DNA from: an uncultured Anaerolineae bacterium
GTDB lineage: Bacteria > Chloroflexota > Anaerolineae > CG2-30-64-16
Direction of reading: 5' to 3'
NCBI GenBank assembly: GCA_937124585.1
Contig: CAKZKT010000014.1
Coordinates: 7,393-71,392 of the forward strand
DNA length: 64,000 nucleotides
Positions 2,807 through 60,979 of this stretch are shown here, in pieces. The notes below the pieces were generated by a model. The model did not search any database. It worked only from the letters and a program-made list of their open reading frames with translations, and was not told where the DNA came from. Positions within the stretch are counted from its first letter, which is position 1. Each line of letters starts with the position of its first letter. Position numbers and translations under genes: made by a program.

Positions 2807-3742
2807 TCAATCGCCGACCAGCGCGCGCAGGAAGAAGAGCAGGTTGGCTGGCCGCTCGGCCAGGCGACGCATGAAGTAGGGATACCAATGCGTGCCATAC
2901 GGCACATAGATGCGCATTTGATAGCCGCGACGCACCAGCGCGGCCTGCAGCTCGCGGCGAATGCCGTAGAGCATCTGGAACTCGTAGGCGGTCGGCGGGA
3001 TGTCGTGATGGTACGCGTAGGCCGCCGTGAAATTGATCACCTCCTCGTCGTGAGATGCGACCGCCGCGTAAGCGCCGCGTGCCCGGCTCTCCGGCGCCAG
3101 ACACGTGCACACGAGAGCGTTGAGCGCGCGCGTCACCGTCGGTCGGTCACGATAGGCAATGCTCGCCGGCTCGTCGTAGGCGCCTTTGCAAAGCCGGAAA
3201 TGGCCGATCCCCTCGGCGATCAACGCCTCCACGTCGGCCTGGCTGCGATGCAGATAAGCCTGGATGACGATGCCACAATTCGCGAACTGGCGCCGCAGCC
3301 GGCGATAGATGGCGAGCGTGCGCGCCGTGTAGGGTGAGCCTTCCATGTCAATGCGCACGAAATTGCCCAGCTCGGCAGCCCGCCGCACGATCCGACTGAC
3401 GTTGCTGAAGCAGAAATCCTCGCCCAGGTCGAGGCCCATCTGAGTCAGCTTGACCGATACGTTGCAGCGCGCGCCGGCCTGTTGGAGCGCCTCCAGAGCG
3501 AGCAGGTATTCGTCGGCCGCAGCGATGGCCTCGGCATGGCTCGTGACATTCTCACCCAGGTGATCCAGGGTGGCAAGCATCCCCTGCCGGTTCAGGTTGA
3601 GCACAGCCGCCAGGGCCTCCTCCAATGTCTCGCCGGACACAAAACGTCGGGCCATCCGTCGCGAGACGGGGACCCGAACGATCAGATCTTGCAGGCCACG
3701 ACTGCGAGACAACGCGATGAGCGTGGTACGCATGAGGGACAT
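2807..3742 (-). CDS. putB: Monofunctional proline dehydrogenase
   Basis: RFVSGE, LDHLGE, SVKLTQMG, RIDME, RLCKGAY, FQMLYG, YVPYG, YFMRRLAERPAN. SD AAAGGAG precedes the ATG at 3742; the longer ORF start at 4120 is a shadow extension. Confidence 0.92.
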   Translation of the reverse strand: MSLMRTTLIALSRSRGLQDLIVRVPVSRRMARRFVSGETLEEALAAVLNLNRQGMLATLDHLGENVTSHAEAIAAADEYLLALEALQQAGARCNVSVKLTQMGLDLGEDFCFSNVSRIVRRAAELGNFVRIDMEGSPYTARTLAIYRRLRRQFANCGIVIQAYLHRSQADVEALIAEGIGHFRLCKGAYDEPASIAYRDRPTVTRALNALVCTCLAPESRARGAYAAVASHDEEVINFTAAYAYHHDIPPTAYEFQMLYGIRRELQAALVRRGYQMRIYVPYGTHWYPYFMRRLAERPANLLFFLRALVGD

Positions 3743-3785
3743 GACCGTTCTCCTTTGCTGAAATGACCTCTTCGTCACGCCCTCT

Positions 3786-6388: not shown

Positions 6389-7297
6389 ATGCGGTTCGCG
6401 GTGTTCGGAGATATCCACGGCAATCTCTTCGGGCTGGAGGCGGTGCTGAGAGACCTGCGCCGTCACCGGCCAGATGCCATGATCGTGACCGGCGACCTGG
6501 TTTACAAGCTGCCATGGGGCGCCGAGGTGATAGACTTGCTGCGCACGCTGCCGCACCGGGCGGTGCTCGGCAACTCGGAGCTCTATCTGGCCCTCTGGGA
6601 GACGCCCCTCTGGCCGGCCGACCTGTGGAACCTGCCCCTGGCCCACGCGGTGATCGCGTGGGAGCGCCGACGGCTCGGCGCCGACCGGCTGGCATGGCTG
6701 GCGGCGCTGCCCGAACATGTCGCGCTTTCGGCCGGCCGGGTTGAGGACCTGCTCGTGGTGCACGGCGTGCCCGGTAACCCGTTCCTGCCGATCCTCGGTC
6801 GGCCGGGCGAGGACCGCTCGCCGTGGGTACAAACGGATGCCCGCGTCCAGGAGCTGCTGGGCGACGTGGATGCGGATGTGGTGGTCTGCGGCCACACGCA
6901 TACGCCGCTGATCCGTCCCGTCGCGTCGCGCGTGCGGGCCGATATCACGATCGTCAATCCCGGCAGCCTGAGCTATGGCCGCGGCCGGGCCGCGACGGTG
7001 GGCCAGGCCGGCTATGCATTGCTCGATTGGTCAGGCCGCACCGGCTGGCAAGTCAGCCTGCACACGGTGCACTATGACCCTGCGCCGCTCCATGCCGCGC
7101 TGCTGGCGTTGCGCGGTGACTATCCGGTGGCCGCGTACATCGCCAATCGAATGCGGCCGACCACTGCGGCCGCGGTGGAAGAGCCGGAGCTGGATTTCGT
7201 GCGTTTTCGCTGGGGCGATGCGCCCGCCTGGTGGGAGGTGCGCGACGATTTGCCCGCCTGGCGCAGCCTGCGCGGAGATCACGTGACGACAGAATAG
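6389..7297 (+). CDS. Calcineurin-like metallophosphoesterase
   Basis: GDIHGN, GDLV, GNSE, HG, GHTH and NPGS motifs; ATG at 6389 follows the ogt stop. Confidence 0.85.
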   Translation: MRFAVFGDIHGNLFGLEAVLRDLRRHRPDAMIVTGDLVYKLPWGAEVIDLLRTLPHRAVLGNSELYLALWETPLWPADLWNLPLAHAVIAWERRRLGADRLAWLAALPEHVALSAGRVEDLLVVHGVPGNPFLPILGRPGEDRSPWVQTDARVQELLGDVDADVVVCGHTHTPLIRPVASRVRADITIVNPGSLSYGRGRAATVGQAGYALLDWSGRTGWQVSLHTVHYDPAPLHAALLALRGDYPVAAYIANRMRPTTAAAVEEPELDFVRFRWGDAPAWWEVRDDLPAWRSLRGDHVTTE

Positions 7298-32225: not shown

Positions 32226-33482
32226 CTATCGGTTGCTCTCATCCACCGCCCGCATCAGCGCCTCACCGTGCTGCAACAACAATTTCGCGCGTTCCTCAGG
32301 CACGCCCTTCGTCTCCAGGTATTTCGCCAGCAGCTCAACCGGCGCGAGCGCCTCCACCGAGACCGCGCCGAGGCGGATGCGGTCGGGACGCTCCATTTCC
32401 TTCTGCAGCGCGGCCACGAAGTACGCGGCCTCCAGCGCCCGGAAGATCTCGCGTTCGACCAGAAGCGATTCCTGCTCCTGGCGCAGGGTCACGATCACAC
32501 GCACGACCGCTTCTGCGAGCTCTGGCTTCGACCGGATGGCCTTCACCACCTCCGCAGTGGGTTCTGTCGCATCGCGCACGTCGGCCTTCACGGTCACAAA
32601 CGGCCGCGCCTGGCGCCGGTAGCCGCGCTCGAACCGCCAGGTCGTCAGCTCGTCCGAGATCTCGGCCACGACGAAGCCCTTGGGGTCGTCTTCCTCGCTG
32701 AAATCAATCCGCTCGATGCTGCCGCTGTAGACGATGGGTGGCTGCAAGTCGCCGTTGAGGCTCTGGTGCTTGTGGATATGGCCCAACGCGACGTAGCGCC
32801 AGGCCGGGTCGGCCAGCACCGCGCGCGGGATCGCCGCGTCGCGGCCGATCATGATGTTCTTCTCCGACCCGTGGGCAGCCTCGTTGACGCTGAAGTGGCC
32901 GACGAGAATGGCCGGCACCTCCGGCCGTTGCCTGGCCTGCGTCGCCAACGCCCGGATGTTCTCGATCATGGCGTTCTGCAACAGCGCGTCCAGCTCGGCC
33001 AGGCTCTTGCCCTGCGTCTGTTCCCGACTCACCAGCGCGCTGCGCAGCGGATAGGGAACCGTCGCCACCTGCAGCGACTGCCCGCGGCGGCAGACGATCT
33101 GGTGGATCTCCTCGCGATTGCCCACGATGACGTTGGGCACGTCCAGCGTGCCGAAGATGTCAATGCTGGTGGCCCGCCTGGCAACCGCGGGCAGATCGTG
33201 GTTGCCGACGAGCAGGATCACCGGGATACCGGCGTCCGCGATGCGCTTGATGCGCCGGGCGAACTCGCGCTGGTAGGTGGAGTTGGGGTCGCGCGTCTTG
33301 TACGCGTCGCCGGCGAAGACGAACACATCCACGCCCTGCTCGATGGCGTAATCGCCGACGTCGCTCAGGCGACGCAGGAAGTCCATGACGCGACCGTTGA
33401 TCCCGGTGGCCGGGTCAATCCGGCCGTAGTTTTCCATGCCGATGTGGATGTCGGCAGTGTGCAGGAGCTTAATCGGTGGCAT
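32226..33482 (-). CDS. sbcD: SbcD/Mre11 nuclease
   Basis: LLHTADIHIG, FAGDAY, LVGNHD, VGHF, YVALGHIH, YSGS...DFSEE. Confidence 0.92.
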   Translation of the reverse strand: MPPIKLLHTADIHIGMENYGRIDPATGINGRVMDFLRRLSDVGDYAIEQGVDVFVFAGDAYKTRDPNSTYQREFARRIKRIADAGIPVILLVGNHDLPAVARRATSIDIFGTLDVPNVIVGNREEIHQIVCRRGQSLQVATVPYPLRSALVSREQTQGKSLAELDALLQNAMIENIRALATQARQRPEVPAILVGHFSVNEAAHGSEKNIMIGRDAAIPRAVLADPAWRYVALGHIHKHQSLNGDLQPPIVYSGSIERIDFSEEDDPKGFVVAEISDELTTWRFERGYRRQARPFVTVKADVRDATEPTAEVVKAIRSKPELAEAVVRVIVTLRQEQESLLVEREIFRALEAAYFVAALQKEMERPDRIRLGAVSVEALAPVELLAKYLETKGVPEERAKLLLQHGEALMRAVDESNR

Positions 33483-33497
33483 AGATATCTGTTCCCC

Positions 33498-33763
33498 CTA
33501 CACCAACCACTCGATGGCGATCAAATGCCGGACCTGGCGAAATTCGGGATCGCCGGTAAGAAGGGTCGCGTCCATTCCCTGAGCCAACGCGACCGCAAAG
33601 GCATCCGCGCAGGAGAGCGCATACTAGGCCTTCACATGCGCGGCGGCGAAGGTCAGCTGCCGGTCGGCGTCAATCACGACGATCGGCAGCTAGTCCACGG
33701 CAGCGATGACGCGACGGGCTGCTGGTCCACGGCAGCAATGACGCGACGGGCTGCAGTCCCCAT
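33498..33763 (-). pseudogene. vapC: Decayed VapC (PIN) toxin, C-terminal half only
   Basis: Manual translation: AARRVIAAVD*LPIVVIDADRQLTFAAAHVKA*YALSCADAFAVALAQGMDATLLTGDPEFRQVRHLIAIEWLV*. Two internal TAG codons and a frameshifting 32-bp duplication. Confidence 0.85.
33690..33753. repeat. 32-bp direct tandem duplication
   Basis: 33690-33721 and 33722-33753 match at 30 of 32 positions. Confidence 0.9.
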
Positions 33764-33802: not shown

Positions 33803-35581
33803 TCAATCAAACCCCTCAAACTCCTTCGGCGGGCGCATGGCGGCGACGTTGTCGTTCAGCCGACGGTTGAGCTCAGCTGCGTCGGCGAAGCCCATGGCTT
33901 TGTAGAAGGCGGTGTCGTAGCGCCGCGTCTGCACCACGACCGGCATGGGGACCGCGTGGCCCAGGATAAGGGCCTGCTCGCGGGTGTCGAGGCGGGCCAG
34001 CACCTCGCGCAGCCCCTCGCCGCCGCTGACGCCGGAGAGCACGGCCTTGATGTCATCCGGGTTGTCCAGCAGCATGGTGACGCGCGTGCCGATCTGCGAC
34101 ATGACCTCGCCGTCAATGCCGGAGGGCCGCTGATCCACGATGAACAACGTGACGTTGTACTTGCGCAGCTCGCGCGCGATGGTGCCGAAGATGGTGTTGG
34201 CGGCGATGGCCGGGTCCAGGAACTTGTGCGCCTCCTCGATGGTGATCACCAGCGGGGTCGGCTCCTGGCCGGCCGCGCCGAAAGACGCCTCTTTGCGCTC
34301 GACGTACAAACGATGGATGCGTCGGGTCAGGAAGTTGGCCACCAGGATGTACGCGCCCAGGTCCGAGCCGTAGCGGCCGAACTCCAGCACGACGCTGGTG
34401 CCCGCCTCCAGATACCGCATGATCCGGCCCACCGAGTCGTCCAGCGCCTTGGGCCGGAGAAAGCCGTAGTTGCGCATGCGCTCGAAACGGCGACGCAGCG
34501 CGGCCAGGGTGTTCTGGCCCTGGCCGGTGTCGTCGGCCAGCGCCTTGAGGCCGGAAACCTCCTTGCCCGTGTCCGGGTCGAAGCCGCCGTACGCGTCCAC
34601 CCACTCGTCGTTCAGGAAGTTGGCCAGCCACGCCTTGCCGAACTTGCGAAAAAGCGCGTACACCGCGCCGATCTGCGGCTCCGACAGGTTCAGGATGCCC
34701 GCCAGCATCTCCAGGTCCTCGGGCTCGATCTGATCGTAGCCGATGGTCACGGTGTAATCGGGGTCCGAGCCGCGGCGGCGGGAAGAGTCGGGGTCCAGGG
34801 TGAAGATGCTGACCTGGCCGGGGAAGATCTGCTTCAAGCCCTTGACCTGGCCGCCCAGGTCCTCGCTGGAGCCGGCCCAGCCGTACTCGTTGTGCATGTC
34901 GAAGATCAGGTTGACCGCAACCCGATGCTTGATGACGCCCGCCAGGAGCAGCCGCGAGAGGAACGTCTTGCCTGTGCCCGACTTGCCGAAGACGCCGCTG
35001 GAGCGCTCCACCAGCCGCTCCAGGCTCAGGGTGATCTTCACGTTCTCCATGTCCAGTGGCTGTCCGATGTGGAAAAAATGGGCCGTCTTGCCGCCGATCC
35101 TCCGCTCCCCCTCCGGCCCGAAAACCTGATCCACCTCGGCCTGGCTGGCGGTGTAGACCGGCGTGAAATGGGCCGGCACGGTCTTCACCGGCTTCACCTC
35201 GCCAGCTTCCTCCATGATCAGGAGCGGGCTGAGGTGCACCGTGCCGAAGGTAGCCGTGCCCTGGTACACCGCGGCCAGGAACGGATCGGACATGTCGGGC
35301 GGCTGCTTGGCGATGAGGGGGTTGGTGCTGTCCAGCGCCACGTCGGTGATCATGCAGAAGAACCTGGCCTGGCGTCCCCGTGCCACAACATAACGCCCCA
35401 CTGCGAGCGCTTCCAGGGACACATCGCGGTCCAACTTGACCGCCAGCCCCTCGCTCAACGAGCCGCCGATGACCACGCCCAGGCGGTCGGCGTGCTCGCG
35501 GGCCGCGGCCAGGGCGGCGCGCTCCTCGGTGGCGGAGATGAGCGCGTCCCAAGCAGCATCGCCTGAATCTAAACCGGTCAT
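33803..35581 (-). CDS. herA: HerA-family ATPase/helicase
   Basis: N-terminal HAS barrel (VVIGGSLSEGL), Walker A GKSGTGKT, IFDMHNEY, Walker B IEEAH, RELRKY, VDQRPS, R-finger ARL. The ATG at 35581 overlaps the abiEii stop (ATGA). Confidence 0.9.
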   Translation of the reverse strand: MTGLDSGDAAWDALISATEERAALAAAREHADRLGVVIGGSLSEGLAVKLDRDVSLEALAVGRYVVARGRQARFFCMITDVALDSTNPLIAKQPPDMSDPFLAAVYQGTATFGTVHLSPLLIMEEAGEVKPVKTVPAHFTPVYTASQAEVDQVFGPEGERRIGGKTAHFFHIGQPLDMENVKITLSLERLVERSSGVFGKSGTGKTFLSRLLLAGVIKHRVAVNLIFDMHNEYGWAGSSEDLGGQVKGLKQIFPGQVSIFTLDPDSSRRRGSDPDYTVTIGYDQIEPEDLEMLAGILNLSEPQIGAVYALFRKFGKAWLANFLNDEWVDAYGGFDPDTGKEVSGLKALADDTGQGQNTLAALRRRFERMRNYGFLRPKALDDSVGRIMRYLEAGTSVVLEFGRYGSDLGAYILVANFLTRRIHRLYVERKEASFGAAGQEPTPLVITIEEAHKFLDPAIAANTIFGTIARELRKYNVTLFIVDQRPSGIDGEVMSQIGTRVTMLLDNPDDIKAVLSGVSGGEGLREVLARLDTREQALILGHAVPMPVVVQTRRYDTAFYKAMGFADAAELNRRLNDNVAAMRPPKEFEGFD

Positions 35582-36405
35582 AACTGTTCGCCCCCTTGTT
35601 TGCCTGCCAACAATCGCAGCAAATTCTCTTGCGTCAAGAGATCGAGAGAAACATTCGGCTCTAGAAATGGACGTACATCGGCGACAATTCGCGCCCAATC
35701 CAAACCCGTCAATCGGCCAGCAACGACTGATCGCCACGTTTCGGCCGTCAACGTTGGGCCGGGCCAACCGGTTTGCCGAAGCGCGTTGTTCAATAGCATC
35801 AAATTCGGCGCAGGCCAGCTCGGATCGCCAAGATACCACAGCAAATCGTAGATGTCTCGGCCTTTGGTGTAAGATCGCTGGAGGACCGCATGCAGTTTGC
35901 CTGCGAGCAGTGAGGCGCGGTCGTGGTGCTGGAGCTGAAGCGTCACATAACGACGTACCACGGTGGTTTCCAGCCCTGCACCTGCAGGGGGATTTGTATC
36001 TACTTCGATCTTGACCGCCAGGACCTCTTCACGAAATGGCGATAACGCGAACTCGTGAAGCAGGCCAGGAAAGCGGACAAAGGCGTTATGGATGGTCTTC
36101 CGATCATTCACTTTTAGTTCAACAGTGTAGCCTTCAACAGACAAACTGCCGCGAATAACTTTAAGATATGTGCGCAGATCATACGACGCTTTGTCCCTTT
36201 CCAGGGCAAAATCCAGGTCTTCAGAGTAGCGTTGACTACCATACAGAAACCGCAATGCAGTGCCGCCATGGAAGGCCAACGGGATCATTGCGCCTGCACG
36301 TTGAAGCGCCGCCAGTACTCTGGCTTGCAGGTATTCGCGCAGTATATTGCGGCCCTGGGCGGGCGTCGCTGCCGATCGCACCAACATCGCAAGATACTCT
36401 TTCAT
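35578..36405 (-). CDS. abiEii: AbiEii-family nucleotidyltransferase toxin (type IV TA)
   Basis: FHGGTALR, RYSEDLDF, KIEVD, GKLHA, KGRDIYDL. Confidence 0.9.
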   Translation of the reverse strand: MKEYLAMLVRSAATPAQGRNILREYLQARVLAALQRAGAMIPLAFHGGTALRFLYGSQRYSEDLDFALERDKASYDLRTYLKVIRGSLSVEGYTVELKVNDRKTIHNAFVRFPGLLHEFALSPFREEVLAVKIEVDTNPPAGAGLETTVVRRYVTLQLQHHDRASLLAGKLHAVLQRSYTKGRDIYDLLWYLGDPSWPAPNLMLLNNALRQTGWPGPTLTAETWRSVVAGRLTGLDWARIVADVRPFLEPNVSLDLLTQENLLRLLAGKQGGEQL

Positions 36406-37043
36406 AGTATCTCGTACTCCGCTGCTTCGCCCTGAGCCAGATCGCGAATATGCGCGACTGCACGCTTCAGCTTGGGGCGACCACTTCGCGCCGCGAACTG
36501 TTCTAGTTCAGTCAAGTTGAGCCGATCGAGATTCTGCAATCGCAGTTCTCGCAGGTACGCCGGATTGTCACCTGCCGGGCTCAAATAGATCAGGTCAAGC
36601 AAAGCCTTTTCCGGCGCGGCAACAAACGCGCGCTGATCTGCGCCGACTTCCACCAGGCGATAACCATATAACAGGTTAATCTGAATGTGCCGATACATGA
36701 AACTGCCCAGGGGCGTATCCCATTGTCCTGGCCGACCGGCAGTGACGCTGGTTGTGAGCGGCGTGTATTCGGGGATGAGGCCGTAATGTGCCAGCACCGA
36801 TTGACAACTGACGTAGGACCCGCGCACGAGACGATTGGCGATGACAAACGGATGCGGTTTGCTGCGTTGAAATGGCGGAGCCAACGCATAAACTCCACGG
36901 CGCAACTGATAGAGCCGGCCCGCGGCGCACCAGCGGGACAATTGCTTCTGCACTCCCGAGGGGTTTACATGGCCGGCCAGCAACAAACCGGTTTCGAATA
37001 CCGGCTCATCTTGAACAATTCGCAGCAACTCCGCAAATTCCAT
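36402..37043 (-). CDS. abiEi: AbiEi-like antitoxin / transcriptional regulator
   Basis: QLSRW...LRRGVY (wHTH), SYVSCQSVL, TSVT, PEKALLDLIYL; ATGA overlap with the toxin. Confidence 0.82.
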   Translation of the reverse strand: MEFAELLRIVQDEPVFETGLLLAGHVNPSGVQKQLSRWCAAGRLYQLRRGVYALAPPFQRSKPHPFVIANRLVRGSYVSCQSVLAHYGLIPEYTPLTTSVTAGRPGQWDTPLGSFMYRHIQINLLYGYRLVEVGADQRAFVAAPEKALLDLIYLSPAGDNPAYLRELRLQNLDRLNLTELEQFAARSGRPKLKRAVAHIRDLAQGEAAEYEIL

Positions 37044-37049
37044 ACCGAT

Positions 37050-37078
37050 ATTTTACCAAAAACGGGAAGTTATTGCAA
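37050..37078 (-). promoter_or_regulatory. abiE promoter, probably producing a leaderless mRNA
   Basis: TTGCAA-N17-TAAAAT with extended TG; only 6 nt separate the -10 box from the ATG at 37043. Confidence 0.7.
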
Positions 37079-37930
37079 CGAAATCACAATGTCAGCACAC
37101 GCGGCCACGAAGATCAGCACGCTGATGTAGCCGTTGACGTTGAAGAAGGCCAGGTTGACCCGGCTCAGGTCGTCGGGCTTGACCAGGCTGTTCTCCCACC
37201 ACAACAGGACGGCCACCAGCAGCACGCCGGCCCAGAAGGGCCACCCCAGCCCGAGCGACAGGCCGGCCGCGGCCAGCAGGAGCACGGTCAGGACGTGATT
37301 GGCTTTCGCCAGGCGCAGCGCGATCGCGTTGCCGAACCGGGCCGGCACCGAGTGCAGCCCCTCCCGGCGATCGAACTCGGTGTCCTGGCAAGCATAGATG
37401 ATGTCGAAGCCGGCCATCCAAAAGGTCACCGTCAGCCACAGGAGGCACGGCGCCGGATGCGCCAGCGAGCCGGTCACTGCGGCCCATGCCCCGGCCACGG
37501 CCATGCCGTCGGTGAAGCCCAGGATCCAGTGGCTGGCCCACGTGAACCGTTTAGTATAACTGTAGCCCACCAGAAAGATCACCGCGGCCGGCAGGAGCGC
37601 GAGCACGAAGCGGTTGAGTTGCCACGCGGCTAGCGTCAACACCCCCAGCGCGACCGCGGCAATGGCCCGCACTACGGCCGGGCTGATCTCGCCCCGCGGC
37701 AAGGGACGGCCCTGGGTGCGGGGATTGCGCGCATCGTAGAAGCGGTCGGCCAGGCGGTTGACCGAGAAGGCCAGGGTGCGGGCCGCGGCCATCGCTACGG
37801 TGATCCAGAGGAAGATGCGCCATCCCGGCCACCCGCGCGCCGCCAACACCATCCCCAAATAGGCAAAGGGGAGGGCAAAGATGGTGTGCTCGAACTTCAC
37901 AATCTCCAGAAACACGCGCAGCTGCCTCAT
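37070..37930 (-). CDS. ubiA: UbiA-family prenyltransferase (MqnP-like)
   Basis: KFEHTIFALP, AARTLAFSVNRLADR.YDARNPRT, YSYTKRF, GFDIIYACQD; ATGA overlap with ubiD. Confidence 0.9.
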   Translation of the reverse strand: MRQLRVFLEIVKFEHTIFALPFAYLGMVLAARGWPGWRIFLWITVAMAAARTLAFSVNRLADRFYDARNPRTQGRPLPRGEISPAVVRAIAAVALGVLTLAAWQLNRFVLALLPAAVIFLVGYSYTKRFTWASHWILGFTDGMAVAGAWAAVTGSLAHPAPCLLWLTVTFWMAGFDIIYACQDTEFDRREGLHSVPARFGNAIALRLAKANHVLTVLLLAAAGLSLGLGWPFWAGVLLVAVLLWWENSLVKPDDLSRVNLAFFNVNGYISVLIFVAACADIVISLQ

Positions 37931-39396
37931 GGGATGCCGTACTCCGACCATCGCTCCTCCACCAACTTCTTGATCGCCTCGGGCATGGCGACCATCTCCG
38001 GCCAGGGCCGCGTGTGGCCGTCGGCCGGGCCCTTGGCAGTGGCATCAATGCCGATCTTGCCGCCGTAGGCGAAGCGATGCGACGCGTGATCCAGCGCGTC
38101 GGTGGGGCCCTCCTGGATCACCACATCGCGCGCCCAGTCCACATTGCCGAACAGGTGCCAGTACGCCTCCGCCGTGTTCTGCACGTCCACATCCTCGTCG
38201 AACACCACGATGGCTTTGGCCAGCATCATCAGCCCCAGCCCCCACAGCCCGTTGATGACTTTGCGCGCATGGCCCGGATAGCGTTTCCGGATGCTCACCA
38301 GCACCAGGTTGTGGAACACCCCCTCGGCCGGCATGTTGATGTCCACCACCTCGCTGAGGAAGAGCCGGATGAGGGGCAGGAAGAGCCGCTCGGTAGCCTT
38401 GCCCATCCAGTAGTCCTCCATGGGTGGCCGGCCGACCACCGTGGCCGGGTAGATGGCCGCCCGACGATGGGTGATCGCGGTGATGTGCATGACCGGGTAG
38501 TTGTCAACCGGCGTGTAGTAGCCGGTGTGGTCGCCGAACGGCCCTTCGGGCCGGGACTCAACCGGATCCACGTAGCCCTCGATCACGATCTCGGCATCGG
38601 CCGGGACTTCCAGCGGCTGGGTGATGCAGCGCGCCAGCGATACCGGCCCGCCGCGCAACCAGCCCGCCAGCAGGAACTCATCAATATCGGGCGGCAGCGG
38701 CGCCGACGCACACCACATGACGGCCGGGTCGCCGCCCAGGCTCACAGCCACCGGGATCCGCACATCGCCCAGGCGGCGGGCCGTCCGCTCATGCTCGGCG
38801 CCGCCCTTGTGGAGCTGCCAGTGCATGCCGAGGGTATGGCTGTCGTGCACCTGGAGGCGATACATGCCCACGTTGCGGGTGCCGCGGGCCGGGTCACGGG
38901 TGATCACGGCCGGCAGGGTGATGTAACGGCCGCCGTCCTGCGGCCAGCACCGGAGGGCCGGCAGCCGCTCTACCGTGGCCTCCGCGCCGGTCAGCACCAC
39001 CTCCTGGACAGGCGCGCGGCTCACCAGTCGCGGCCGCAGGCCGATGCTGCGCAGCGCGGCCAGCAACTCGCCGGCGCGCTCCAGCGTCGGCCCCCAGCCG
39101 CGCGGCAGCTCGGGCCGCAGCAGCGCCGCCAGCCGCTCGGTCAGGTCGTCCAGCCGCTCCACGCCAAGCGCCCAGGCCATGCGCCGCGCCGAGCCGAACA
39201 GGTTGATGGCGACCGGCATGTCGTAGCCGCGCACGTTCTCGAACAACAGGGCCTTGTTGGCGTCGGCCCTGCCCTTGCTGATCCGATCCACGATCGCGCT
39301 GATCTCCAGGTCAGCGCTGACCGGCGCTTTGACCCGTATCAGCTCGCCGGCCCCCTCCAGCCGGCCGATGAATGCCCGTAAATCGCGATAGGCCAT
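37927..39396 (-). CDS. ubiD: UbiD-family decarboxylase (MqnL-like menaquinone decarboxylase)
   Basis: AYRDLRAFI, INLFGS, WPQDGGRYIT, NVGMYR, MHWQLHK, EGPFGDHTGYY, DALDHA. Confidence 0.92.
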   Translation of the reverse strand: MAYRDLRAFIGRLEGAGELIRVKAPVSADLEISAIVDRISKGRADANKALLFENVRGYDMPVAINLFGSARRMAWALGVERLDDLTERLAALLRPELPRGWGPTLERAGELLAALRSIGLRPRLVSRAPVQEVVLTGAEATVERLPALRCWPQDGGRYITLPAVITRDPARGTRNVGMYRLQVHDSHTLGMHWQLHKGGAEHERTARRLGDVRIPVAVSLGGDPAVMWCASAPLPPDIDEFLLAGWLRGGPVSLARCITQPLEVPADAEIVIEGYVDPVESRPEGPFGDHTGYYTPVDNYPVMHITAITHRRAAIYPATVVGRPPMEDYWMGKATERLFLPLIRLFLSEVVDINMPAEGVFHNLVLVSIRKRYPGHARKVINGLWGLGLMMLAKAIVVFDEDVDVQNTAEAYWHLFGNVDWARDVVIQEGPTDALDHASHRFAYGGKIGIDATAKGPADGHTRPWPEMVAMPEAIKKLVEERWSEYGIP

Positions 39397-39596: not shown

Positions 39597-41105
39597 TCAA
39601 GCCAGATTATACAGCGCCCCGTACTTCTCGCGCAGGTACGCGATGTACGGCGCGATGCTCAGCGGCCCGCCCGTCACCCGCTCGATCAGCTCGGAGGCGG
39701 TGAACTTGCTGCCGTGCTGGTAGATGTTCTCCCGCAGCCAGCCATGCAGCACGGCGAACCGGCCCTGGCGGATCTCCTCCGGGATCTCCGGATGTGCGGC
39801 GCATGCCGTCGCGAAGAATTGCGCGGCCAGGATGTTGCCCAGCGTGTAGCCCTGGAACGCGCCGCCGATGACGCCGGCGTACCAGTGCACGTCTTGCATA
39901 CAGCCATCTTTGTCGTCCGGCGGCGCGATCCCCAGGTCGGCCTGGTAGCGCGCCCGCCACGCCTCCGGCAGGTCGGCGACCGCCAACTTGCCCTCGAGCA
40001 GCGCCAGCTCCAGGTCGAAGCGGATCATCACGTGCAGGTTGTAGGTCACCTCGTCGGCCGCCGTACGGATGAGCGAACGTTCGACCTTGTTGATGGCGCG
40101 GTAGAATGTATCCTGCGGCACGGCGCCGAGCTGGTCGGGGAAAACCGCTTGCAGTTGAGGATAGAAGTACTCCCAGAAGCCCGGACTACGGCCCACGATG
40201 TTCTCCCACAACCGCGACTGGCTTTCGTGCACCCCCGCCGAGGTGCCGTTGGCCAGCGGCGTGCCCTCGTAGTCCATGCGGATCCCCTGCTCGTACATGG
40301 CGTGGCCCGCCTCGTGCATCACGCTGAAGAGGTTTTCGCCCAGATTGTGCTCGTCCACGCGCGTGGTGATCCGGCAGTCGCCCAGCGAGAACTTGGTCAT
40401 GAACGGATGGTGTGTCTTGTCCAATCGGCCGCGGTCGAAATCGTAGCCGAAGCGCCGGATGACATCCACGGCGAAGTCCCATTGCGCTTTTTCGGGGAAA
40501 TACTGGCGCAGGCACGCATCATCGGCCGGCGGCTGGTCGGTGATGGCCTTGACGATGGGCACAAGCTGGTGCCGCAGTTCGCCGAACAGCGGCCGGATCA
40601 CCGACACCTTCATGCCGTAGTCGGCCCAGTCAATCAGCGGATCGGCGATGTGCTCGTAGGGTTGGAAATAGTCGGCCAGCTGGCGGCTCAGGTCGAGCGT
40701 TTTCTCCAGGCCATCGCGCACGCGGCCGAAATCGTTGGCCGGCCGCGCCTCCGCCCAGCGCTGATACATGTGCGCCGTGTGGCCGGAGAGCTGTGCGACG
40801 AACGCGGACGGCACTTTGATCGCACGCTCGAACTCGCGCCGCGCCACGCGGATGAGCGCGGCATCGTCCGCATCGTAAGGCAGGCTCTCCTCATAGGGCC
40901 GCAGGTCGTCCAAAAGCCGGCCTAGCGCCGGGTCGGTCAGCCGTTCGTGCGCCAGACGGCTCAACAGGGCCGACTGACGGGCGCGCGCCGCGCCGCCTCC
41001 CGGCGGCATGTAGGTGCTCTGGTCCCATCCTAACAACGCCTCGACAGAGTGGAGGTCGTTGATTTCCAGCAACCTTGCCTTCAGTTCTTGCAATTTATCT
41101 TCCAT
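39597..41105 (-). CDS. M32 carboxypeptidase (Taq-type)
   Basis: LLGWDQSTYMP, HPFM, HEAGHAMYEQG, GVHESQSRLWEN, IRTAADE, QDVHW, YTLGN. Confidence 0.93.
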   Translation of the reverse strand: MEDKLQELKARLLEINDLHSVEALLGWDQSTYMPPGGGAARARQSALLSRLAHERLTDPALGRLLDDLRPYEESLPYDADDAALIRVARREFERAIKVPSAFVAQLSGHTAHMYQRWAEARPANDFGRVRDGLEKTLDLSRQLADYFQPYEHIADPLIDWADYGMKVSVIRPLFGELRHQLVPIVKAITDQPPADDACLRQYFPEKAQWDFAVDVIRRFGYDFDRGRLDKTHHPFMTKFSLGDCRITTRVDEHNLGENLFSVMHEAGHAMYEQGIRMDYEGTPLANGTSAGVHESQSRLWENIVGRSPGFWEYFYPQLQAVFPDQLGAVPQDTFYRAINKVERSLIRTAADEVTYNLHVMIRFDLELALLEGKLAVADLPEAWRARYQADLGIAPPDDKDGCMQDVHWYAGVIGGAFQGYTLGNILAAQFFATACAAHPEIPEEIRQGRFAVLHGWLRENIYQHGSKFTASELIERVTGGPLSIAPYIAYLREKYGALYNLA

Positions 41106-41164: not shown

Positions 41165-41794
41165 TCACGGTCGCAGTTGCTGCAGAATCCCATCCAGCCG
41201 CGCCAGGTCGAGCGCCAGAAGTCTGGCCAGCTCACGGCCGGCCGAGATGAGATAGGCCGCGCGCTCCTGGTCGGTCGACCGCGTCGCCGCAGCCGCACGC
41301 AGCGCGGCGACAACCAGCTGATCGGCAGGCGCCTCGGTCGCGGCGAGCACGGTGCGCAGCCAGTCGTGGCGTTCGGTGAAGCGACGGATCTCAGCGGCAT
41401 TGCAGATGTAAATCGGGTCGAGCGTGCCGGGCGGCTGCAGCGCCAGCCGGTAGAACACATCCATGACGGCACTGCCCATTGCGCGCGGCCGACCATGTCC
41501 TACCACCAACACGTCCACATCCACGGGGGTCTGACGGATCTGACGTTGATCGGCGATGATCTCCTCGTTCTCCACGCCCGCGGCGACCAGCTGCCGCACA
41601 AATGGGTCATCCTCGATCCGCACATCGTAGACCAGACCGTAGGTTACGCTCTCGTCGCGGTGAAGCGCCTTGACCAGCGCGCCGAATGCAGGCGTCATGC
41701 GGCTCTGCTCGGCGATCGTCGGCCGACAGCCGATGGTGAAGCCGGTGGTGCTGGCCCTCAGCACGCGACCGGCGATGATGGTGAGTTCGTCCAT
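41165..41794 (-). CDS. Stand-alone HAS-barrel domain protein of nurA/herA loci
   Basis: GRVLRASTTGF, PAFGALV, YGLVYDVRIEDDPFVRQL, QPPGTLDPI, ELARLL. ATG at 41794 has an upstream SD; the longer TTG start looks non-coding. Confidence 0.72.
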   Translation of the reverse strand: MDELTIIAGRVLRASTTGFTIGCRPTIAEQSRMTPAFGALVKALHRDESVTYGLVYDVRIEDDPFVRQLVAAGVENEEIIADQRQIRQTPVDVDVLVVGHGRPRAMGSAVMDVFYRLALQPPGTLDPIYICNAAEIRRFTERHDWLRTVLAATEAPADQLVVAALRAAAATRSTDQERAAYLISAGRELARLLALDLARLDGILQQLRP

Positions 41795-41973
41795 GCCTGT
41801 CTCAACTCCGCCCTCTGCGATCTGACTTGCCAAAAACCGAAATGTGGCACAGAATCGCATCTGCCGCCACATCAACACAAGCCGACATGCGGTGTTACCC
41901 AATCGTCCGCCGATGCGATATCGACCGCCCTGAAAAACACATGCGCCCTGCCCCTGCACGCGATCAGAGCGCC

Positions 41974-43188
41974 TCAACGGCCCCGGCGACCACCGATCAG
42001 CGCCTTCAGGCCAGCCTTCTCCGAGACGGCCGGCAGCATGCCGTGGCGCAGGAGGGCCTGCTCCAGCATCGCCTCGAACCCGGCGCGCTCTGCGTCGCCC
42101 ACGACGGCCAGCTCGTGGGCACGCGTCAGCACATAGGGATAGGGTCGAGGCACACAGTTCTCGTAAACGACAGCCTGCACGACATCGAGCAGGCCGGGCT
42201 CATCGGCCACCCATCGCGGCATCTCGATGCGGGCGATGACGCTGTGCCGGGGATCGGCCTGCCGTGCCACGTTGACATACGCAAAGATGATGCGATCGCC
42301 GCCCGAAGCGCGCTCGTAGCGGTCGTTGGTCTCGGAATTGGCCGTGAAGAGCGCACAGCGCTCGTTGGGCGCCAGATCATCGAACAACAGGCGGTCGGTC
42401 AACAGACGAAAGCTGCCGCGGCGCAGCGACTCCCGAGAGATCTGCTCGATGGGCTGCTCGATGAGTTCCAGGATGCGCAGCACGTAGGCGCTGTCGGGCC
42501 GATCCACATAGCCCACCGGCACGGCGCGCGCTCGACGCAGGCGGTGCATTTGGGCGACGAAAAAGTCCATCTCCTCGTGGACCGGTGCATCCTCCTCGGC
42601 ATCCAGCTTCTGCCACGGCAGCAGCGGGCCGTCCGTCAGGCAGATGATCGGCCTGGACAGATCGCCGGCCAGGGCAGTACGCTCCGCCTCGGCCAGGTCG
42701 GCGAGGGCCCTGATCTCGCGACGGGCGCGCTGCGCGTTGACGTGTTCGGGCGGATGAAGCTGACCGTCCGCGTCGTACAGGTCCTGCTCCTCGTAAAAGA
42801 TCTCCGGCATGCTCATGACCGAGGGAGCCTGGCCGCTGCCTGCGCGCAAGACGATCGCGCCGGTGTTCACCAGGTAGTAGGGCACGATCGCATGGCGGTC
42901 GGGATAGATCTGGCTGCCGTCGGCGGCGATGAGGATGGCCGCCGAGGGTGTCAGGGTGGCTCGATGGCGTTCGCTGAGCTGCTCGCCCAGAGGAAGCGCA
43001 CCGCGACGCCATTGGTCAATCTCACGTGCCCGGCTGATCTTCGCGCGCAGTTCGGCCGTGACATGCGGCGTGGAGGCCAGGATCTCTTTGGCGCGTGCCA
43101 GGCGATCTCGTTGAGCATCGCGGCGCTGCGCCAATGCCTGGCCCATTACATCCACTTGTTTGGTCAGTTTGTTCAGCTCGAGCGCCAC
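41974..43188 (-). CDS. nurA: NurA 5'-3' nuclease
   Basis: AADGSQIYPDRH, TDGPL, VGYVDRP, ARIEMP, YPYVLTRAHELAVV; GTG start after SD AAGGA. Confidence 0.88.
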   Translation of the reverse strand: MALELNKLTKQVDVMGQALAQRRDAQRDRLARAKEILASTPHVTAELRAKISRAREIDQWRRGALPLGEQLSERHRATLTPSAAILIAADGSQIYPDRHAIVPYYLVNTGAIVLRAGSGQAPSVMSMPEIFYEEQDLYDADGQLHPPEHVNAQRARREIRALADLAEAERTALAGDLSRPIICLTDGPLLPWQKLDAEEDAPVHEEMDFFVAQMHRLRRARAVPVGYVDRPDSAYVLRILELIEQPIEQISRESLRRGSFRLLTDRLLFDDLAPNERCALFTANSETNDRYERASGGDRIIFAYVNVARQADPRHSVIARIEMPRWVADEPGLLDVVQAVVYENCVPRPYPYVLTRAHELAVVGDAERAGFEAMLEQALLRHGMLPAVSEKAGLKALIGGRRGR

Positions 43189-43220
43189 ACCAACGTCCTT
43201 TCGAACAGATTTTCGCAAAC

Positions 43221-57427: not shown

Positions 57428-58397
57428 CGACGGACGAAAGACGAAGGACGAAGGACGAAAGACGGACGAAACCGTTGATCATTCGTCATTCGTCATTCGT
57501 CCGGTCTTGGTCCTGGGCCTCGGCAACCCGCTGCAAGGGGATGATGGCGTCGGTTGCCGGGCCATCGAGGCGTTGCAGCAGTACACGCTGCCGGAGACGG
57601 TCGAAACCCTGGACGGCGGCACCCCCGGCATCGGGTTGTTGCACCTGCTGGAGGGGCGGCGGCGTGCCATTCTGGTGGACGCGGCCGAGATGGGCCAGCC
57701 GGCCGGCACCATCGTCCGGTTTCGAGCCGCAGACGTAACCCTGGCCGGCGCCGCAGAACGCCTCTCGCTCCACCGGACAGCGGTAGCCGATGCGCTGGCG
57801 CTGGCAGAGGCGCTGACGCTGTCGCTGCCGGACATCGTGTTTTTCGGGGTGCAGCCGGAACGTGTCGGCTGGGGCCAGGACCTGAGCCCCAAAGTCGCGG
57901 CCGCCGTACCACAGGTGGTACAGGCGATCTTGCATGAGATCTCTCACGATCCAAAGGAAGGGATACACATGCCCACGAAAAAAGAGGCTCCTGAAACCAA
58001 AGGCCTGATCTTGATCGTTGACGACGATCCAGACATGGTAGAAGCTTTGCGCATGCCGCTCGAGGCCCACCGCTACTCCGTAGCCCATGCTGCCAGCGGT
58101 CGTCTGGCCCTGAAGATGATCCCGGAGCTGCGACCCGACCTCATCATCCTGGACGTGATGATGGAAACGACCACCGAAGGTTTCCAGGTGTCCCTCGCGC
58201 TGCGCAGCCCCGACCCGCGCTCCGAATACGCGGCCTACAAAGACATCCCCATCCTAATGCTGACCTCGATCCACTCGACCACGCCGTTGCGCTTCGGGCC
58301 GGATCAGGACTACCTGCCGGTGGACGAGTTCATAGACAAGCCGGTGGACCCAGACAAGTTGGTTGCCAAAATCAACGCATTACTGGCCCGCAAGTAG
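57420..58397 (+). CDS. In-frame fusion: hydrogenase maturation protease plus receiver domain
   Basis: GLGNPLQGDDGVG, LDGGT, ILVDA, SLH, then from the ATG at 57969 (SD AAGGAAGG) LILIVDDD, IILDVMME, MLTS, FIDKP. No stop codon lies between them. Confidence 0.85.
   Translation: MFDDGRKTKDEGRKTDETVDHSSFVIRPVLVLGLGNPLQGDDGVGCRAIEALQQYTLPETVETLDGGTPGIGLLHLLEGRRRAILVDAAEMGQPAGTIVRFRAADVTLAGAAERLSLHRTAVADALALAEALTLSLPDIVFFGVQPERVGWGQDLSPKVAAAVPQVVQAILHEISHDPKEGIHMPTKKEAPETKGLILIVDDDPDMVEALRMPLEAHRYSVAHAASGRLALKMIPELRPDLIILDVMMETTTEGFQVSLALRSPDPRSEYAAYKDIPILMLTSIHSTTPLRFGPDQDYLPVDEFIDKPVDPDKLVAKINALLARK
57424..57501. repeat. Heptamer tandem/inverted repeat inside the protease 5' end
   Basis: GACGAA(A/G) repeated about five times, then TTCGTC(A) three times; the arms are complementary. 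Confidence 0.85.
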
Positions 58398-58412
58398 CGC
58401 CGCTCGGATACA

Positions 58413-58447
58413 CAGATGCCAGGCGCAGCCTGAACGCCTGGCATCTG
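58413..58447 (+). terminator. Hairpin closing the hydrogenase unit, related to the REP family
   Basis: CAGATGCCAGGCG-cagcctgaa-CGCCTGGCATCTG. Confidence 0.65.
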
Positions 58448-58568
58448 ATTAACCGGGACTATGACAGGCATCATTGCCGGGCCGACCGCTTTATGCTTTA
58501 AGAACGCTGAGCTTTCTATTCGACTCGCCAGCTATCTGGCTTTGCCAGCCATATTGAGGCGTTGAAGC

Positions 58569-59039
58569 ATGCTTGATATGACAACAAACTTCGACCTGGC
58601 GCCGTTGCATGCGATCCTGGAAGAGTATGGCAGTCAAAAAGGCACCGTCATCCCCATCCTGCAGCGGGTGCAGGACGCGTACGGTTACCTGCCGAAGGAA
58701 ATCCTGGCCGAAATATCGAAGCGGACCAACATCCCCCTCACCCAGCTCATGGGAGTAGCGACCTTCTACACCCAGTTCCGCTTGAGCCCGCGGGGTAAGC
58801 ATCTTATTCGGGTATGCGACGGAACGGCTTGTCATGTAAGTGGAGCGCCCCACATTGTAAGGGCTATCGAAAAGGAATACGATATGCCGGCCGGATCTTC
58901 CTCGCCTGATCTTAAGTATACGCTCGAGGTTGTATATTGCGTGGGCGCATGTGGACTGGCTCCGGTCGTCATCGTGGATGACAAGGTGTATGGGAGGCTC
59001 TCTCCCGATGCTGTCCTGGAAAAAGTGCGTGATGTCTGA
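58569..59039 (+). CDS. NuoE/HydC-like 2Fe-2S subunit
   Basis: IPILQRVQDAYGYLP, ATFYTQF, VCDGTACH, CVGACGLAP. Confidence 0.92.
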   Translation: MLDMTTNFDLAPLHAILEEYGSQKGTVIPILQRVQDAYGYLPKEILAEISKRTNIPLTQLMGVATFYTQFRLSPRGKHLIRVCDGTACHVSGAPHIVRAIEKEYDMPAGSSSPDLKYTLEVVYCVGACGLAPVVIVDDKVYGRLSPDAVLEKVRDV

Positions 59040-59065
59040 TAAGGCAACCCGGCAGGAGGCGCGAG

Positions 59066-60979
59066 ATGTCCTTATTGAAATCCACTGATGATCTGCTGAG
59101 CCTGCGCGAGAGGGCAATATACGCTTTAGGGGTCCGTGTGCCGGGCGCGTCCCAACCTCAGTTTCGCAACGACGTAGTCGTTTGTGGCAGCACAGGCTGT
59201 CGGTCGGCCAATTCCCAGCAGGTTCTGAAAGCGCTACAGGCTCAGATCATCCAGAGGGAGTTGGACAAGGCTGTACGCGTGATTTCTACTGGTTGCCGCG
59301 GTTTATGTGCCGTGGGACCGGTGATGCAGATTTTCCCCTCCGGTGTGTTCTACAACCGCGTCCAGATTACGGACGTGCCAGAAATTGTCGAACAGACGCT
59401 GGTCGGGGGCAAGATCATCGAAAGGCTTTGTTTCCGTGATGTGGCGCAGAACAAAAGGCTCGCGCATTATCTGGACATTCCGTTTTATAACCGACAACTG
59501 CCCATTGTCCTACGCAACTGCGGCTTGATTGATCCGCAAAACATAGAGGAATACATCGCCACTGATGGCTACTTGGGATTGACTAAAGCATTAGAGCTAT
59601 CACCCGAGGAGGTCATCGAGATCATCAAAAATTCAGGCTTGCGTGGGCGTGGCGGAGCCGGCTTTTCCACAGGCATTAAATGGGAGCTTTGTCGGCGGGT
59701 CGCAAAACAACCGAAGTACGTGATTTGCAACGCGGATGAAGGTGATCCTGGCGCGTTCATGGACCGTTCCATCCTGGAAGCTGACCCGCACAGCGTGATC
59801 GAAGGGATGGTAATTGCAGCCTATGCGATTGGAGCGCCGCTAGGATACATCTATGTACGTGCTGAATACCCGTTGGCTGTGATTCACCTCCGAAGAGCTA
59901 TCGCCCAAGCGCGGGCGTACGGCCTACTGGGCGAAAATATCCTGGGCAGCGGCTTCTCCTTTGACCTGCACCTGAAGGAGGGGGCGGGCGCGTTCGTGTG
60001 CGGCGAGGAGATGGCACTCATCGCCTCCGTCGAAGGCCGCCGCGGAGAGCCGCGGCCCAAACCACCCTTCCCGGCCGTCTCCGGCCTCTGGAACCGGCCA
60101 ACGGTCGTCAACAACGTCAAAACCTACGCCCTGACGCCCCGGATCATCCTGAGGGGGCCAGAGTGGTTCTCGAGCATCGGCACGTCCAAATCGCCGGGCA
60201 CCGCCGTGTTCGCCTTGACCGGAAAGATCAGAAACACCGGCCTGATCGAAGTGCCCATGGGCATCACCCTGCGCGAGATCATCTACGACATTGGCGGCGG
60301 CATCCCCAAGAAGCGCCAGTTCAAGGCCGTCCAAACCGGCGGCCCGTTGGGCGGATGCCTGCCCGCCTCGGCGCTAGACACGCCGGTGGATTTCGATTCC
60401 CTCACCGAAGCCGGCGCCACCATGGGCTCGGGGGGCATGATCGTGGTTGACGAGCGCACCTGTATGGTTGAATTCGCCAAATACTTCCTGACCTTCGCTA
60501 CTGCCGAATCGTGTGGCAAGTGCGTGCCGTGCCGCATCGGCGGCCAGCGACTGCTGGAAGTGCTCACCCGCATCACCTCAGGCGCAGGCACCCCGCGCGA
60601 TTTGGACGAGATTGAACGCATCTCCCGCAACATGCGCGAGGCGTCGCTCTGTGCGCTGGGCCAGCTGACACCCGGCCCGGTCATGTCGGCGCTGCGCTTC
60701 TTCCGTGAGGAGTACGAGGCGCATGTCTACGACAAATTCTGTCTGGCCGGCGTCTGCAAAGGGCTCTATGAGCTGCACGTGGACGCCGACAGATGCGCGG
60801 GATGCGGCTTGTGCAAGAAGGCCTGTTCACAAGACGCGATCAGCGGCAACCGCAAGGAACCGCATGTCATTGACCAGCTCAAATGCATCCAGTGCGGCGC
60901 TTGTGTCGAGGCGTGCAACCTGGATGCCATCGTAGCTCAGCCGCGAGGAAAAGGCGTACATGCCATTGCGGTGGCTTAG
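59066..60979 (+). CDS. NuoF/HydB(BfuB)-like FMN/NADH subunit with extra Fe-S domains
   Basis: N-terminal CGSTGC...GCRGLC, GLRGRGGAGF, NADEGDPGAFMDR, FVCGEE, GGPLGG, ESCGKCVPCR, SLCALG, H-x5-C-x4-C, and a C-terminal 2x[4Fe-4S]. Confidence 0.93.
   Translation: MSLLKSTDDLLSLRERAIYALGVRVPGASQPQFRNDVVVCGSTGCRSANSQQVLKALQAQIIQRELDKAVRVISTGCRGLCAVGPVMQIFPSGVFYNRVQITDVPEIVEQTLVGGKIIERLCFRDVAQNKRLAHYLDIPFYNRQLPIVLRNCGLIDPQNIEEYIATDGYLGLTKALELSPEEVIEIIKNSGLRGRGGAGFSTGIKWELCRRVAKQPKYVICNADEGDPGAFMDRSILEADPHSVIEGMVIAAYAIGAPLGYIYVRAEYPLAVIHLRRAIAQARAYGLLGENILGSGFSFDLHLKEGAGAFVCGEEMALIASVEGRRGEPRPKPPFPAVSGLWNRPTVVNNVKTYALTPRIILRGPEWFSSIGTSKSPGTAVFALTGKIRNTGLIEVPMGITLREIIYDIGGGIPKKRQFKAVQTGGPLGGCLPASALDTPVDFDSLTEAGATMGSGGMIVVDERTCMVEFAKYFLTFATAESCGKCVPCRIGGQRLLEVLTRITSGAGTPRDLDEIERISRNMREASLCALGQLTPGPVMSALRFFREEYEAHVYDKFCLAGVCKGLYELHVDADRCAGCGLCKKACSQDAISGNRKEPHVIDQLKCIQCGACVEACNLDAIVAQPRGKGVHAIAVA

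Follow-up and report, generated by a model that had tools for sequence, protein, structure and literature searches.

An intact AbiE cassette joined to both of its neighbours in the herA 5' flank of an Anaerolineae genome: probably a non-polar insertion

In the 64,000-nt stretch of contig CAKZKT010000014.1 analyzed here (the window, from an uncultured Anaerolineae bacterium; all coordinates refer to it, and (-) denotes its minus strand), an AbiE toxin-antitoxin (TA) pair lies between the prenyltransferase gene ubiA and the conserved repair gene herA. We regard it as probable that this pair is an ordinary, intact AbiE cassette that has been inserted into the recurrently used 5' flank of herA with neither recombinase nor repeats, and that the insertion was non-polar. 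Judging from the sequence, we read the tight joints on either side as the signature of such a non-polar insertion and not as an evolved regulatory circuit between defence and repair. The cassette, its two joints and its immediate neighbours are as follows:

37070..37951 (-), ubiA, UbiA prenyltransferase, 293 aa (Pfam PF01040, E 5e-56)
37082..37096 (-), left junction, about 15 nt (junction alignment)
37041..37081 (-), cassette promoter and predicted operator (promoter scan; homologue comparison)
36402..37043 (-), abiEi, antitoxin and predicted autorepressor, 213 aa (PADLOC PDLC02241, E 2.5e-58)
35578..36405 (-), abiEii, DUF1814 nucleotidyltransferase (NTase) toxin, 275 aa (PF08843, E 2.8e-28; PDLC02293, E 1.4e-66)
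35578..35604 (-), C-terminal extension of AbiEii, which is the right junction (homologue lengths; herA leaders of relatives)
33803..35581 (-), herA, 592 aa, HAS barrel and DUF87 ATPase (Pfam)

The promoter of the cassette (P_abiE) is embedded in the end of ubiA, which reads ...TCG TTG CAA TAA at 37081..37070. As a preliminary description of this DNA had stated, the -35 box falls within the last ubiA codons, TTG CAA TAA (37078..37070): TTGCAA spans 37078..37073, and the TAA at 37072..37070 is the ubiA stop codon. A 17-nt spacer leads to the -10 box TAAAAT (37055..37050), itself part of the extended -10 element TGGTAAAAT (37058..37050; TG-n-TAAAAT). At the threshold of our scan, the minus strand has no other sigma-70-type promoter between 33.3 and 37.4 kb. 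The abiEi ATG (37043) begins 6 nt past the -10 box, with the predicted +1 at the A of the ATG, a geometry that fits the leaderless antitoxin mRNA predicted earlier and that is invariant across the subfamily of homologous cassettes. Indeed, every homologous cassette at an unrelated locus that came with enough upstream sequence (83/83; 78 distinct promoter strings) carries TTGCAATAA together with the promoter and ATG, in a block composed of TTGCAA, usually TAA, a 17-nt spacer, TAnnnT, 6 nt and ATG GAA TTy (consensus layout TTGCAA-TAA-N14-TAnnnT-N6-ATG). Among the 78 distinct promoters, the TTG of the -35 box is kept in 77, the TG at -15/-14 in 76 and the -10 pattern in all 78.

Recurrence of the TTGCAATAA block at so many unrelated loci implies that the DNA now ending ubiA is cassette DNA. 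Sequence before about -40 and past the toxin stop is unrelated between loci, and the homology reaches from about 5 nt ahead of the -35 box to the toxin stop; since it is confined to the block and the two genes, the mobile unit is a minimal promoter-to-stop cassette of about 1.5 kb. The host side of the left joint tells the same story. All ten UbiA orthologues compared, including those of G016 and of the same-genus genomes G001 and G002, end in ..(A/G)GLW(V/L/F)-stop, whereas the UbiA of the window ends in ..ACA-DIVISLQ-stop, its last 7 codons and stop replacing the native GLWV-stop tail. The ubiA DNA is homologous to that of G016 as far as ...GCGTGTGC; within ~15 nt beyond this point, homology to the other cassettes (ATTTCGTTGCAATAA) sets in.

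At the right joint, it is the toxin that has acquired a foreign end. AbiEii homologues stop at ..LLRVLE-stop with a modal length of 267-271 aa, while the 275-aa protein of the window exceeds the modal homologue by about 8 residues, the extra GKQGGEQL-stop being encoded by DNA that resembles a herA leader (native leaders of relatives, tCAAGGAACTGAtCC-ATG; window, aCAAGGGGGCGAACAGTT-ATG). This extension DNA contains a Shine-Dalgarno (SD)-like AAGGGGG, 9 nt upstream of the herA start. The HerA N-terminus consists of M, about 8 variable residues and D..(F/W)DAL.SA.EER, its position is conserved in 20 relatives, and the variant in the window resembles those of G022 and G012, from which we conclude that the ATG at 35581 is ancestral. 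The toxin stop overlaps this ATG, as described before (ATGA at 35581..35578), so that the intergenic distance is zero. The view of the cassette as an insertion spliced into both neighbours is thus borne out by a replaced UbiA tail and an extended AbiEii tail; the comparison with cassette-less relatives that had been proposed came out differently on the two sides, with a changed ubiA terminus but an unchanged, ancestral herA start codon. Close contact of the abiEii stop with the start of an unrelated downstream gene, by overlap or abutment (-8 to -1 nt), is seen in at least five further cassettes, and the toxins of loci L076 and L104 have a long C-terminal extension (loci bearing on tails and overlaps: L092, L106, L076, L056, L129 and L063). 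These overlapping stops and extended toxins suggest that read-through of the toxin tail into host DNA recurs.

Between ubiA and herA there is no transposase or integrase open reading frame (ORF), and no direct or inverted repeats were found flanking the cassette junctions, nor a target duplication, in agreement with what had been noted by eye. With neither a recombinase ORF nor junction repeats, the cassette does not qualify as a mobile element with a recombinase of its own (insertion sequence, transposon or integron cassette). The genes ubiD, ubiA, abiEi, abiEii and herA form a co-oriented string without a predicted terminator; from the ubiA stop to herA, only one weak 5-bp stem was predicted, early in abiEii.

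The flank into which the cassette was inserted is one of two herA junctions with an eventful history. Its setting in the window, where the minus strand carries all genes of 31.3-43.2 kb, where Pfam and PADLOC matches agree with the gene names and where reading of 31-43 kb showed no rad50/sbcC, and the remnants in two relatives discussed below, are:

43218..41974 (-), nurA
41977..41165 (-), unannotated 270-aa gene (orf270; no Pfam match)
41105..39597 (-), M32 carboxypeptidase
39396..37927 (-), ubiD
33501..33689 (-), dead vapC (PIN) remnant in the herA-mre11 gap (translation, tblastn/blastn)
32226..33482 (-), mre11/sbcD-like metallophosphoesterase, 418 aa (Pfam PF00149)
about 3730-3780 of locus L021 (G001), mazF 3' remnant
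about 884-952 of locus L022 (G002), mazF 3' remnant

A HerA orthologue is present in 39 of 41 genomes of the class, and in our survey of herA flanks (about 20 genomes), 17 of 20 loci examined in relatives kept the herA-mre11 synteny. The deeper-branching genera (G008, G021, G006 and G020) show the order nurA-orf270-M32-herA-mre11 with gaps of 6-56 nt between M32 and herA and of 21-35 nt between herA and mre11. In closer relatives, both herA junctions are expanded, with different contents in nearly every genus. At the 5' flank, G010 has an intact PemK/MazF gene, co-oriented with herA and 35 nt upstream of it, and in G001 and G002 the last 14-20 mazF codons (..LRITLDI-stop) remain directly upstream of herA. 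G016, the only other genome with ubiD-ubiA before herA, shares with G011 and G023 two genes on the opposite strand, one for another AbiEii-family NTase of 231 aa and one, DUF6922-like, of 90 aa. A NotI-type restriction-modification pair occurs in G011 and G012, a DUF3800 gene in G014, and GNAT or SDR genes in other genomes. In seven genomes, two lineages of PDDEXK_3 (GxxExxY) genes occupy the gap between herA and mre11; in the window and in G002, its occupant is vapC. For the vapC remnant of the window, only the C-terminal half with an in-frame TAG is left; its DNA is 71% identical to the same-gap sequence of G002 and resembles the vapC copies that G024, G010 and G022 have downstream of mre11, and the gene call of an independent assembly at this place gives a weak PIN match. 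A PDDEXK_3 remnant, considered as a further occupant of the herA-mre11 gap of the window, turned out to be absent, the gap holding the vapC remnant. In the insert contents that we read, no integrase- or transposase-like gene was seen, a statement that does not extend to every insert ORF. The mazF 3' ends, the dead vapC and fragments of herA 5' ends (see below) point to repeated overwriting at the flanks. By their gene contents, the herA flanks are a hot spot where small cassettes of a selfish or defence kind settle; in the genome of the window, the occupant is AbiE. A literature search for TA modules beside bacterial nurA/herA yielded nothing relevant.

Some further observations concern this neighbourhood. 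Diverged herA N-terminal fragments of ~40-48 codons (67-72% aa identity) lie ~0.9 kb upstream of intact herA in G011 (L026, ~6587-6730) and G014 (L032, 6079-6195), in the latter with the DUF3800 gene between fragment and intact herA; such fragments suggest cassette exchange with one crossover inside herA. The two PDDEXK_3 lineages (L023, L024, L025, L027 and L028 vs. L026 and L033) are only ~40% identical to each other. Just upstream of the vapC fragment of the window (~33690-33755) there is a tandem duplication of ~33 nt (CAGCCCGTCGCGTCATyGCTGCCGTGGAC). The orf270 gene (41165-41977) is conserved beside nurA in 13 of 20 relatives' loci examined (55-67% identity), and the M32 peptidase gene, too, is conserved as part of the family's nurA...herA string.

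By sequence-level criteria, the pair itself is an intact and ordinary member of the AbiE group. AbiEi carries a winged helix-turn-helix (wHTH) domain at the N-terminus, followed by a C-terminal domain, and is encoded directly upstream of abiEii; its PADLOC match (PDLC02241) is full-length, covering residues 1-200 of 213, and against Pfam AbiEi_4 it scores 23.8 bits, slightly under the 25-bit cut-off. The PF08843 match of AbiEii scores above its cut-off. Motifs I (hGG/S), II (DxD), III (K..R) and IV (+DxxD), as defined in PMC3985639, are intact in AbiEii (G47G48, D63/D65, K-x6-R and RDIYD, respectively). In the segment R59-Y-S61-E-D63-L-D65, Ser61 precedes the first aspartate of motif II by two residues, and RxSxDxD is common to 76 of 80 AbiEii homologues; the catalytic motifs and the phospho-acceptor serine are intact in 76-78 of the 80. 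The equivalence of Ser61 to T65 of Streptococcus agalactiae AbiEii is drawn from motif spacing only. The two genes of the window overlap by 4 nt (ATGA at 36405..36402); they are adjacent in all ten in-family loci in which both are whole (an 11th locus is truncated where its contig ends), and their coordinates abut in a way compatible with the ATGA overlap. Among solved structures, no PDB match by sequence at E 0.01 or better was obtained.

The 22-bp dyad from -28 to -7 (37071..37050 in the window) covers the spacer and the -10 box of the promoter described above. Across the 78 promoters, the dyad pairs -28/-7, -24/-11, -21/-14 and -20/-15 are invariant or nearly so, and the pairs -22/-13 and -23/-12 covary to an extent reached by none of 2000 column shuffles, the pairs -25/-10 and -26/-9 to an extent reached by 5 and 9 of 2000. 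Being conserved and covarying, the dyad, with the consensus TTACCAT-nn-ATGGTAA, is a likely binding site for AbiEi, and it is termed the predicted operator here.

In base composition, the cassette stands out clearly, as had been noticed. The G+C counts made by hand were exact (26/60 at 36121-36180 vs. 50/60 at 35461-35520), and sliding G+C and third-position G+C (GC3) both drop in abiEi and abiEii relative to their neighbours: the G+C content of 35582-37081 is 0.555 compared with 0.642 for the whole window, of 626 windows of equal size only 3 have a lower value, and GC3 is 0.61 for abiEi and 0.56 for abiEii vs. 0.75-0.91 in seven flanking genes. The three lower windows all fall into one region near 58 kb; this region (~58300-59900, 0.544-0.57, with NuoE/NuoF-like genes of the hydrogenase locus) is the sole other part of the window that is as G+C-poor. 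Cassettes of the same lineage have G+C contents of 0.55-0.65 compared with 0.65-0.68 in the flanking DNA of most hosts checked, and the copy in the window is among the lowest. Low G+C is thus in part a trait of the cassette lineage and, taken alone, no proof of recent arrival.

How such a cassette might work and persist can be outlined with due reserve. P_abiE would fire at the A of the abiEi ATG and yield a leaderless transcript. As in other members of the family, AbiEi would be expected to bind the dyad over the spacer and -10 box and thereby repress its own operon, and, following the 2026 preprint of Arrowsmith et al. (10.64898/2026.01.19.700257), it may neutralize AbiEii by inducing autophosphorylation of the Ser61 equivalent. 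By the same family analogy, free AbiEii would transfer nucleotides to tRNA-like targets and arrest growth, and the pair could act in abortive infection. Given the zero gap and the lack of a terminator, transcripts from P_abiE and from upstream (ubiD-ubiA) would inevitably run on into herA. The insertion may then have survived because herA-mre11 expression was kept: ubiA received its stop codon from the cassette, the toxin stop was fused to the herA ATG, and the SD element of herA was retained.

Several points weigh against this explanation. A downstream neighbour co-oriented with the cassette was found in 47 of 69 homologous cassettes (68%; gap of at most 53 nt in 20), and a downstream co-orientation of 68% is about the genomic norm; the survivorship argument is therefore not statistically demonstrated. 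Preferential siting upstream of co-oriented genes was considered on the basis of the same 47/69 and dropped, no enrichment being claimed. The control for covariation in the dyad consisted of column shuffles only, which ignore relatedness, so that the covariation is good but not decisive evidence for a repressor site. In the window itself, the dyad has 3 of 6 core pairs and belongs to the lowest 9 of 78 promoters, such that autorepression could be relaxed here. The step from this degenerate operator to a constitutive promoter was judged too weak, as 9 of 78 promoters score equally low or lower. Finally, the cassette might, though less probably, have been lost in G001 and G002 rather than gained in G000 (the genome of the window).

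The preliminary description had gone further and proposed that herA, and perhaps mre11, is now driven by and translationally coupled to an autorepressed, stress-responsive AbiE operon, linking TA and phage stress to DNA-end resection. We consider this unlikely. The layout invites it, with stop and start overlapping in ATGA, no nucleotide between the two genes and no terminator, with P_abiE as the only consensus-grade minus-strand promoter within 3.7 kb upstream of the herA 3' end, and with a weaker dyad in the window that could mean higher constitutive output; the co-oriented MazF gene 35 nt from herA in G010 moreover shows that a TA-then-herA order recurs. Several observations speak against it. 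The ancestral herA start and its SD-like AAGGGGG were kept, no RNA structure that would enforce coupling is apparent at the abiEii/herA junction (z +1.23), and a weak extended -10 candidate, TGGTATCTT (35838..35830), lies inside abiEii. The string is co-oriented from ubiD onwards without a predicted terminator, so that read-through from ubiD-ubiA is equally to be expected. Cassettes on the opposite strand beside herA in G016, G011 and G023 argue that herA needs no TA promoter, and the close or ATGA-type overlaps of at least five other cassettes with unrelated genes look like a general packing feature. As herA ancestrally lay 6-56 nt behind the M32 gene, dependence on upstream transcription would be nothing new. 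Control of herA by the cassette is thus unproven, and from the arguments at hand it appears less likely than a neutral, non-polar insertion; the claim that herA is 'now controlled' in this way is, at best, inferred. Of the proposal to look for a start and an internal promoter of herA's own, the start could be affirmed as ancestral with its SD-like element, while the promoter came down to the weak -10 candidate. A related scenario, in which cassettes overwrite one another at the herA-flank hot spot and the co-oriented ones (AbiE, MazF of G010) become the proximal herA-mre11 promoter, such that derepression under phage attack or stress co-induces end processing, seems quite improbable to us. In a lesser version, the AbiE subfamily may represent a distinct regulatory design, i.e., a leaderless promoter within a single 22-bp dyad that travels from promoter to stop.

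A different question is how long the cassette has been in place. Of 37 genomes of the same bacterial family, 14 have AbiEii homologues with 65-76% identity; among species representatives, such homologues are found at more than 530 loci, most of them from Chloroflexota. In a maximum-likelihood tree of concatenated AbiEi and AbiEii, the window falls into a clade (support 93/91) with most same-family cassettes, which lends no support to a distant-phylum donor that we had considered; these cassettes sit at a different locus per genus and are syntenic within genera (G051/G019, G044/G006). On the strength of this tree and distribution, the AbiE lineage is endemic to the bacterial family, which, together with the synteny within genera and a G+C content below that of the host in most lineage cassettes checked, would also suit an old vertical resident that was lost from relatives and whose low G+C and tight junctions are long-standing. 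We give this very little weight. No other genome of the family has AbiE beside herA, no AbiE was found in the same-genus genomes G001 and G002, which carry mazF remnants at the site, and the ancestral family order has neither ubiDA nor AbiE there; G016, the nearest genome with ubiA-herA adjacency, has a different cassette and the native UbiA end. The simplest history is that the cassette was acquired within the genus, through illegitimate recombination, from a related donor. An assembly chimera or a decaying, functionless pseudo-cassette, finally, might be suspected because the genome is a metagenome-assembled genome (MAG) of 164 contigs, the composition break coincides with gene borders and a dead vapC lies nearby. 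We attach next to no credence to this idea: neither ORF is disrupted, all catalytic motifs are present, the profile matches extend over the full length, and a JGI metagenome contig (3300010288; 100% identity over 6.8 kb) and the independent MAG GCA_034432295.1 (99.94% identity) show the identical gene order, so that the arrangement is not a chimera. A non-polar insertion of an intact cassette remains our preferred explanation.

If so, the locus offers a base-pair-resolved example of a recombinase-less defence or TA cassette that entered an operon without breaking it, by donating a stop codon to the upstream gene and fusing its own stop to the downstream start. The locus also shows that, across one bacterial family, at least six kinds of cassettes, selfish or defensive, have made use of one position next to a conserved repair gene. 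The conserved leaderless promoter-operator block provides a testable candidate operator for Chloroflexota AbiEi. The most reusable results are, in our opinion, the herA-flank hot spot and the minimal promoter-to-stop unit. Coupling to herA-mre11, if true, would link abortive-infection signalling to DNA-end resection.

Among known systems, the closest references are the AbiE systems of S. agalactiae and of Lactococcus lactis pNP40 (Dy et al. 2014, PMC3985639; Beck et al. 2020, PMC7319586). The window shares with them the antitoxin-first bicistron with a 4-nt ATGA overlap, the COG5340/wHTH antitoxin, the DUF1814 NTase with motifs I-IV and with the R-x-[ST]-x-D-x-D context of the phospho-acceptor, and a symmetric repeat that overlaps the promoter, in line with autorepression. 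AbiE has been classed as a type IV TA system, as the preliminary description had it, and type VII has been proposed in the preprint cited above, where T65 is given as the phospho-acceptor of S. agalactiae AbiEii (10.64898/2026.01.19.700257). In S. agalactiae, the mapped abiE start lies 26 nt upstream of the ATG, the transcript is leadered, and the operator consists of two 23-bp inverted repeats 3 bp apart (PMC3985639, PMC7319586). In contrast, the window has a leaderless geometry and a single dyad of 22 bp that covers the spacer and -10 box, and this difference in promoter and operator suggests that the Chloroflexota-rich subfamily is a regulatory variant of AbiE. Unlike the two reference systems, the cassette of the window is fused to both neighbours.

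The toxin superfamily (DUF1814) is also that of the Mycobacterium tuberculosis MenAT and Rv2827c-Rv2826c pairs. The AbiEi-like autorepressor of M. tuberculosis binds inverted repeats that overlap promoter and start site (PMC7319586), and, as cited in the 2026 preprint (10.64898/2026.01.19.700257), the toxin is neutralized by antitoxin-induced phosphorylation. Rv2827c differs from the AbiEi of the window in being larger and in using four repeats with negative cooperativity, and the relation in sequence is distant. As a locus, the herA flank resembles the defence and TA hot spots of the Escherichia coli pan-genome (PMC10121019), where one position between core genes holds different TA, restriction-modification or defence cassettes in different lineages, but it differs in lying inside the ancestrally tight nurA-orf270-M32-herA-mre11 string of a Chloroflexota family. 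This string in turn recalls the NurA-HerA pairs of Deinococcus and Thermus and the archaeal herA-mre11-rad50-nurA operon, in that nurA, herA and an mre11-like gene are co-oriented, with conservation in 39 of 41 relatives. Here, unlike in those arrangements, an M32 peptidase gene and, in the window, also ubiD-ubiA and AbiE interrupt the set; nurA, herA and the mre11-like gene are the context of the cassette and not parts of it.

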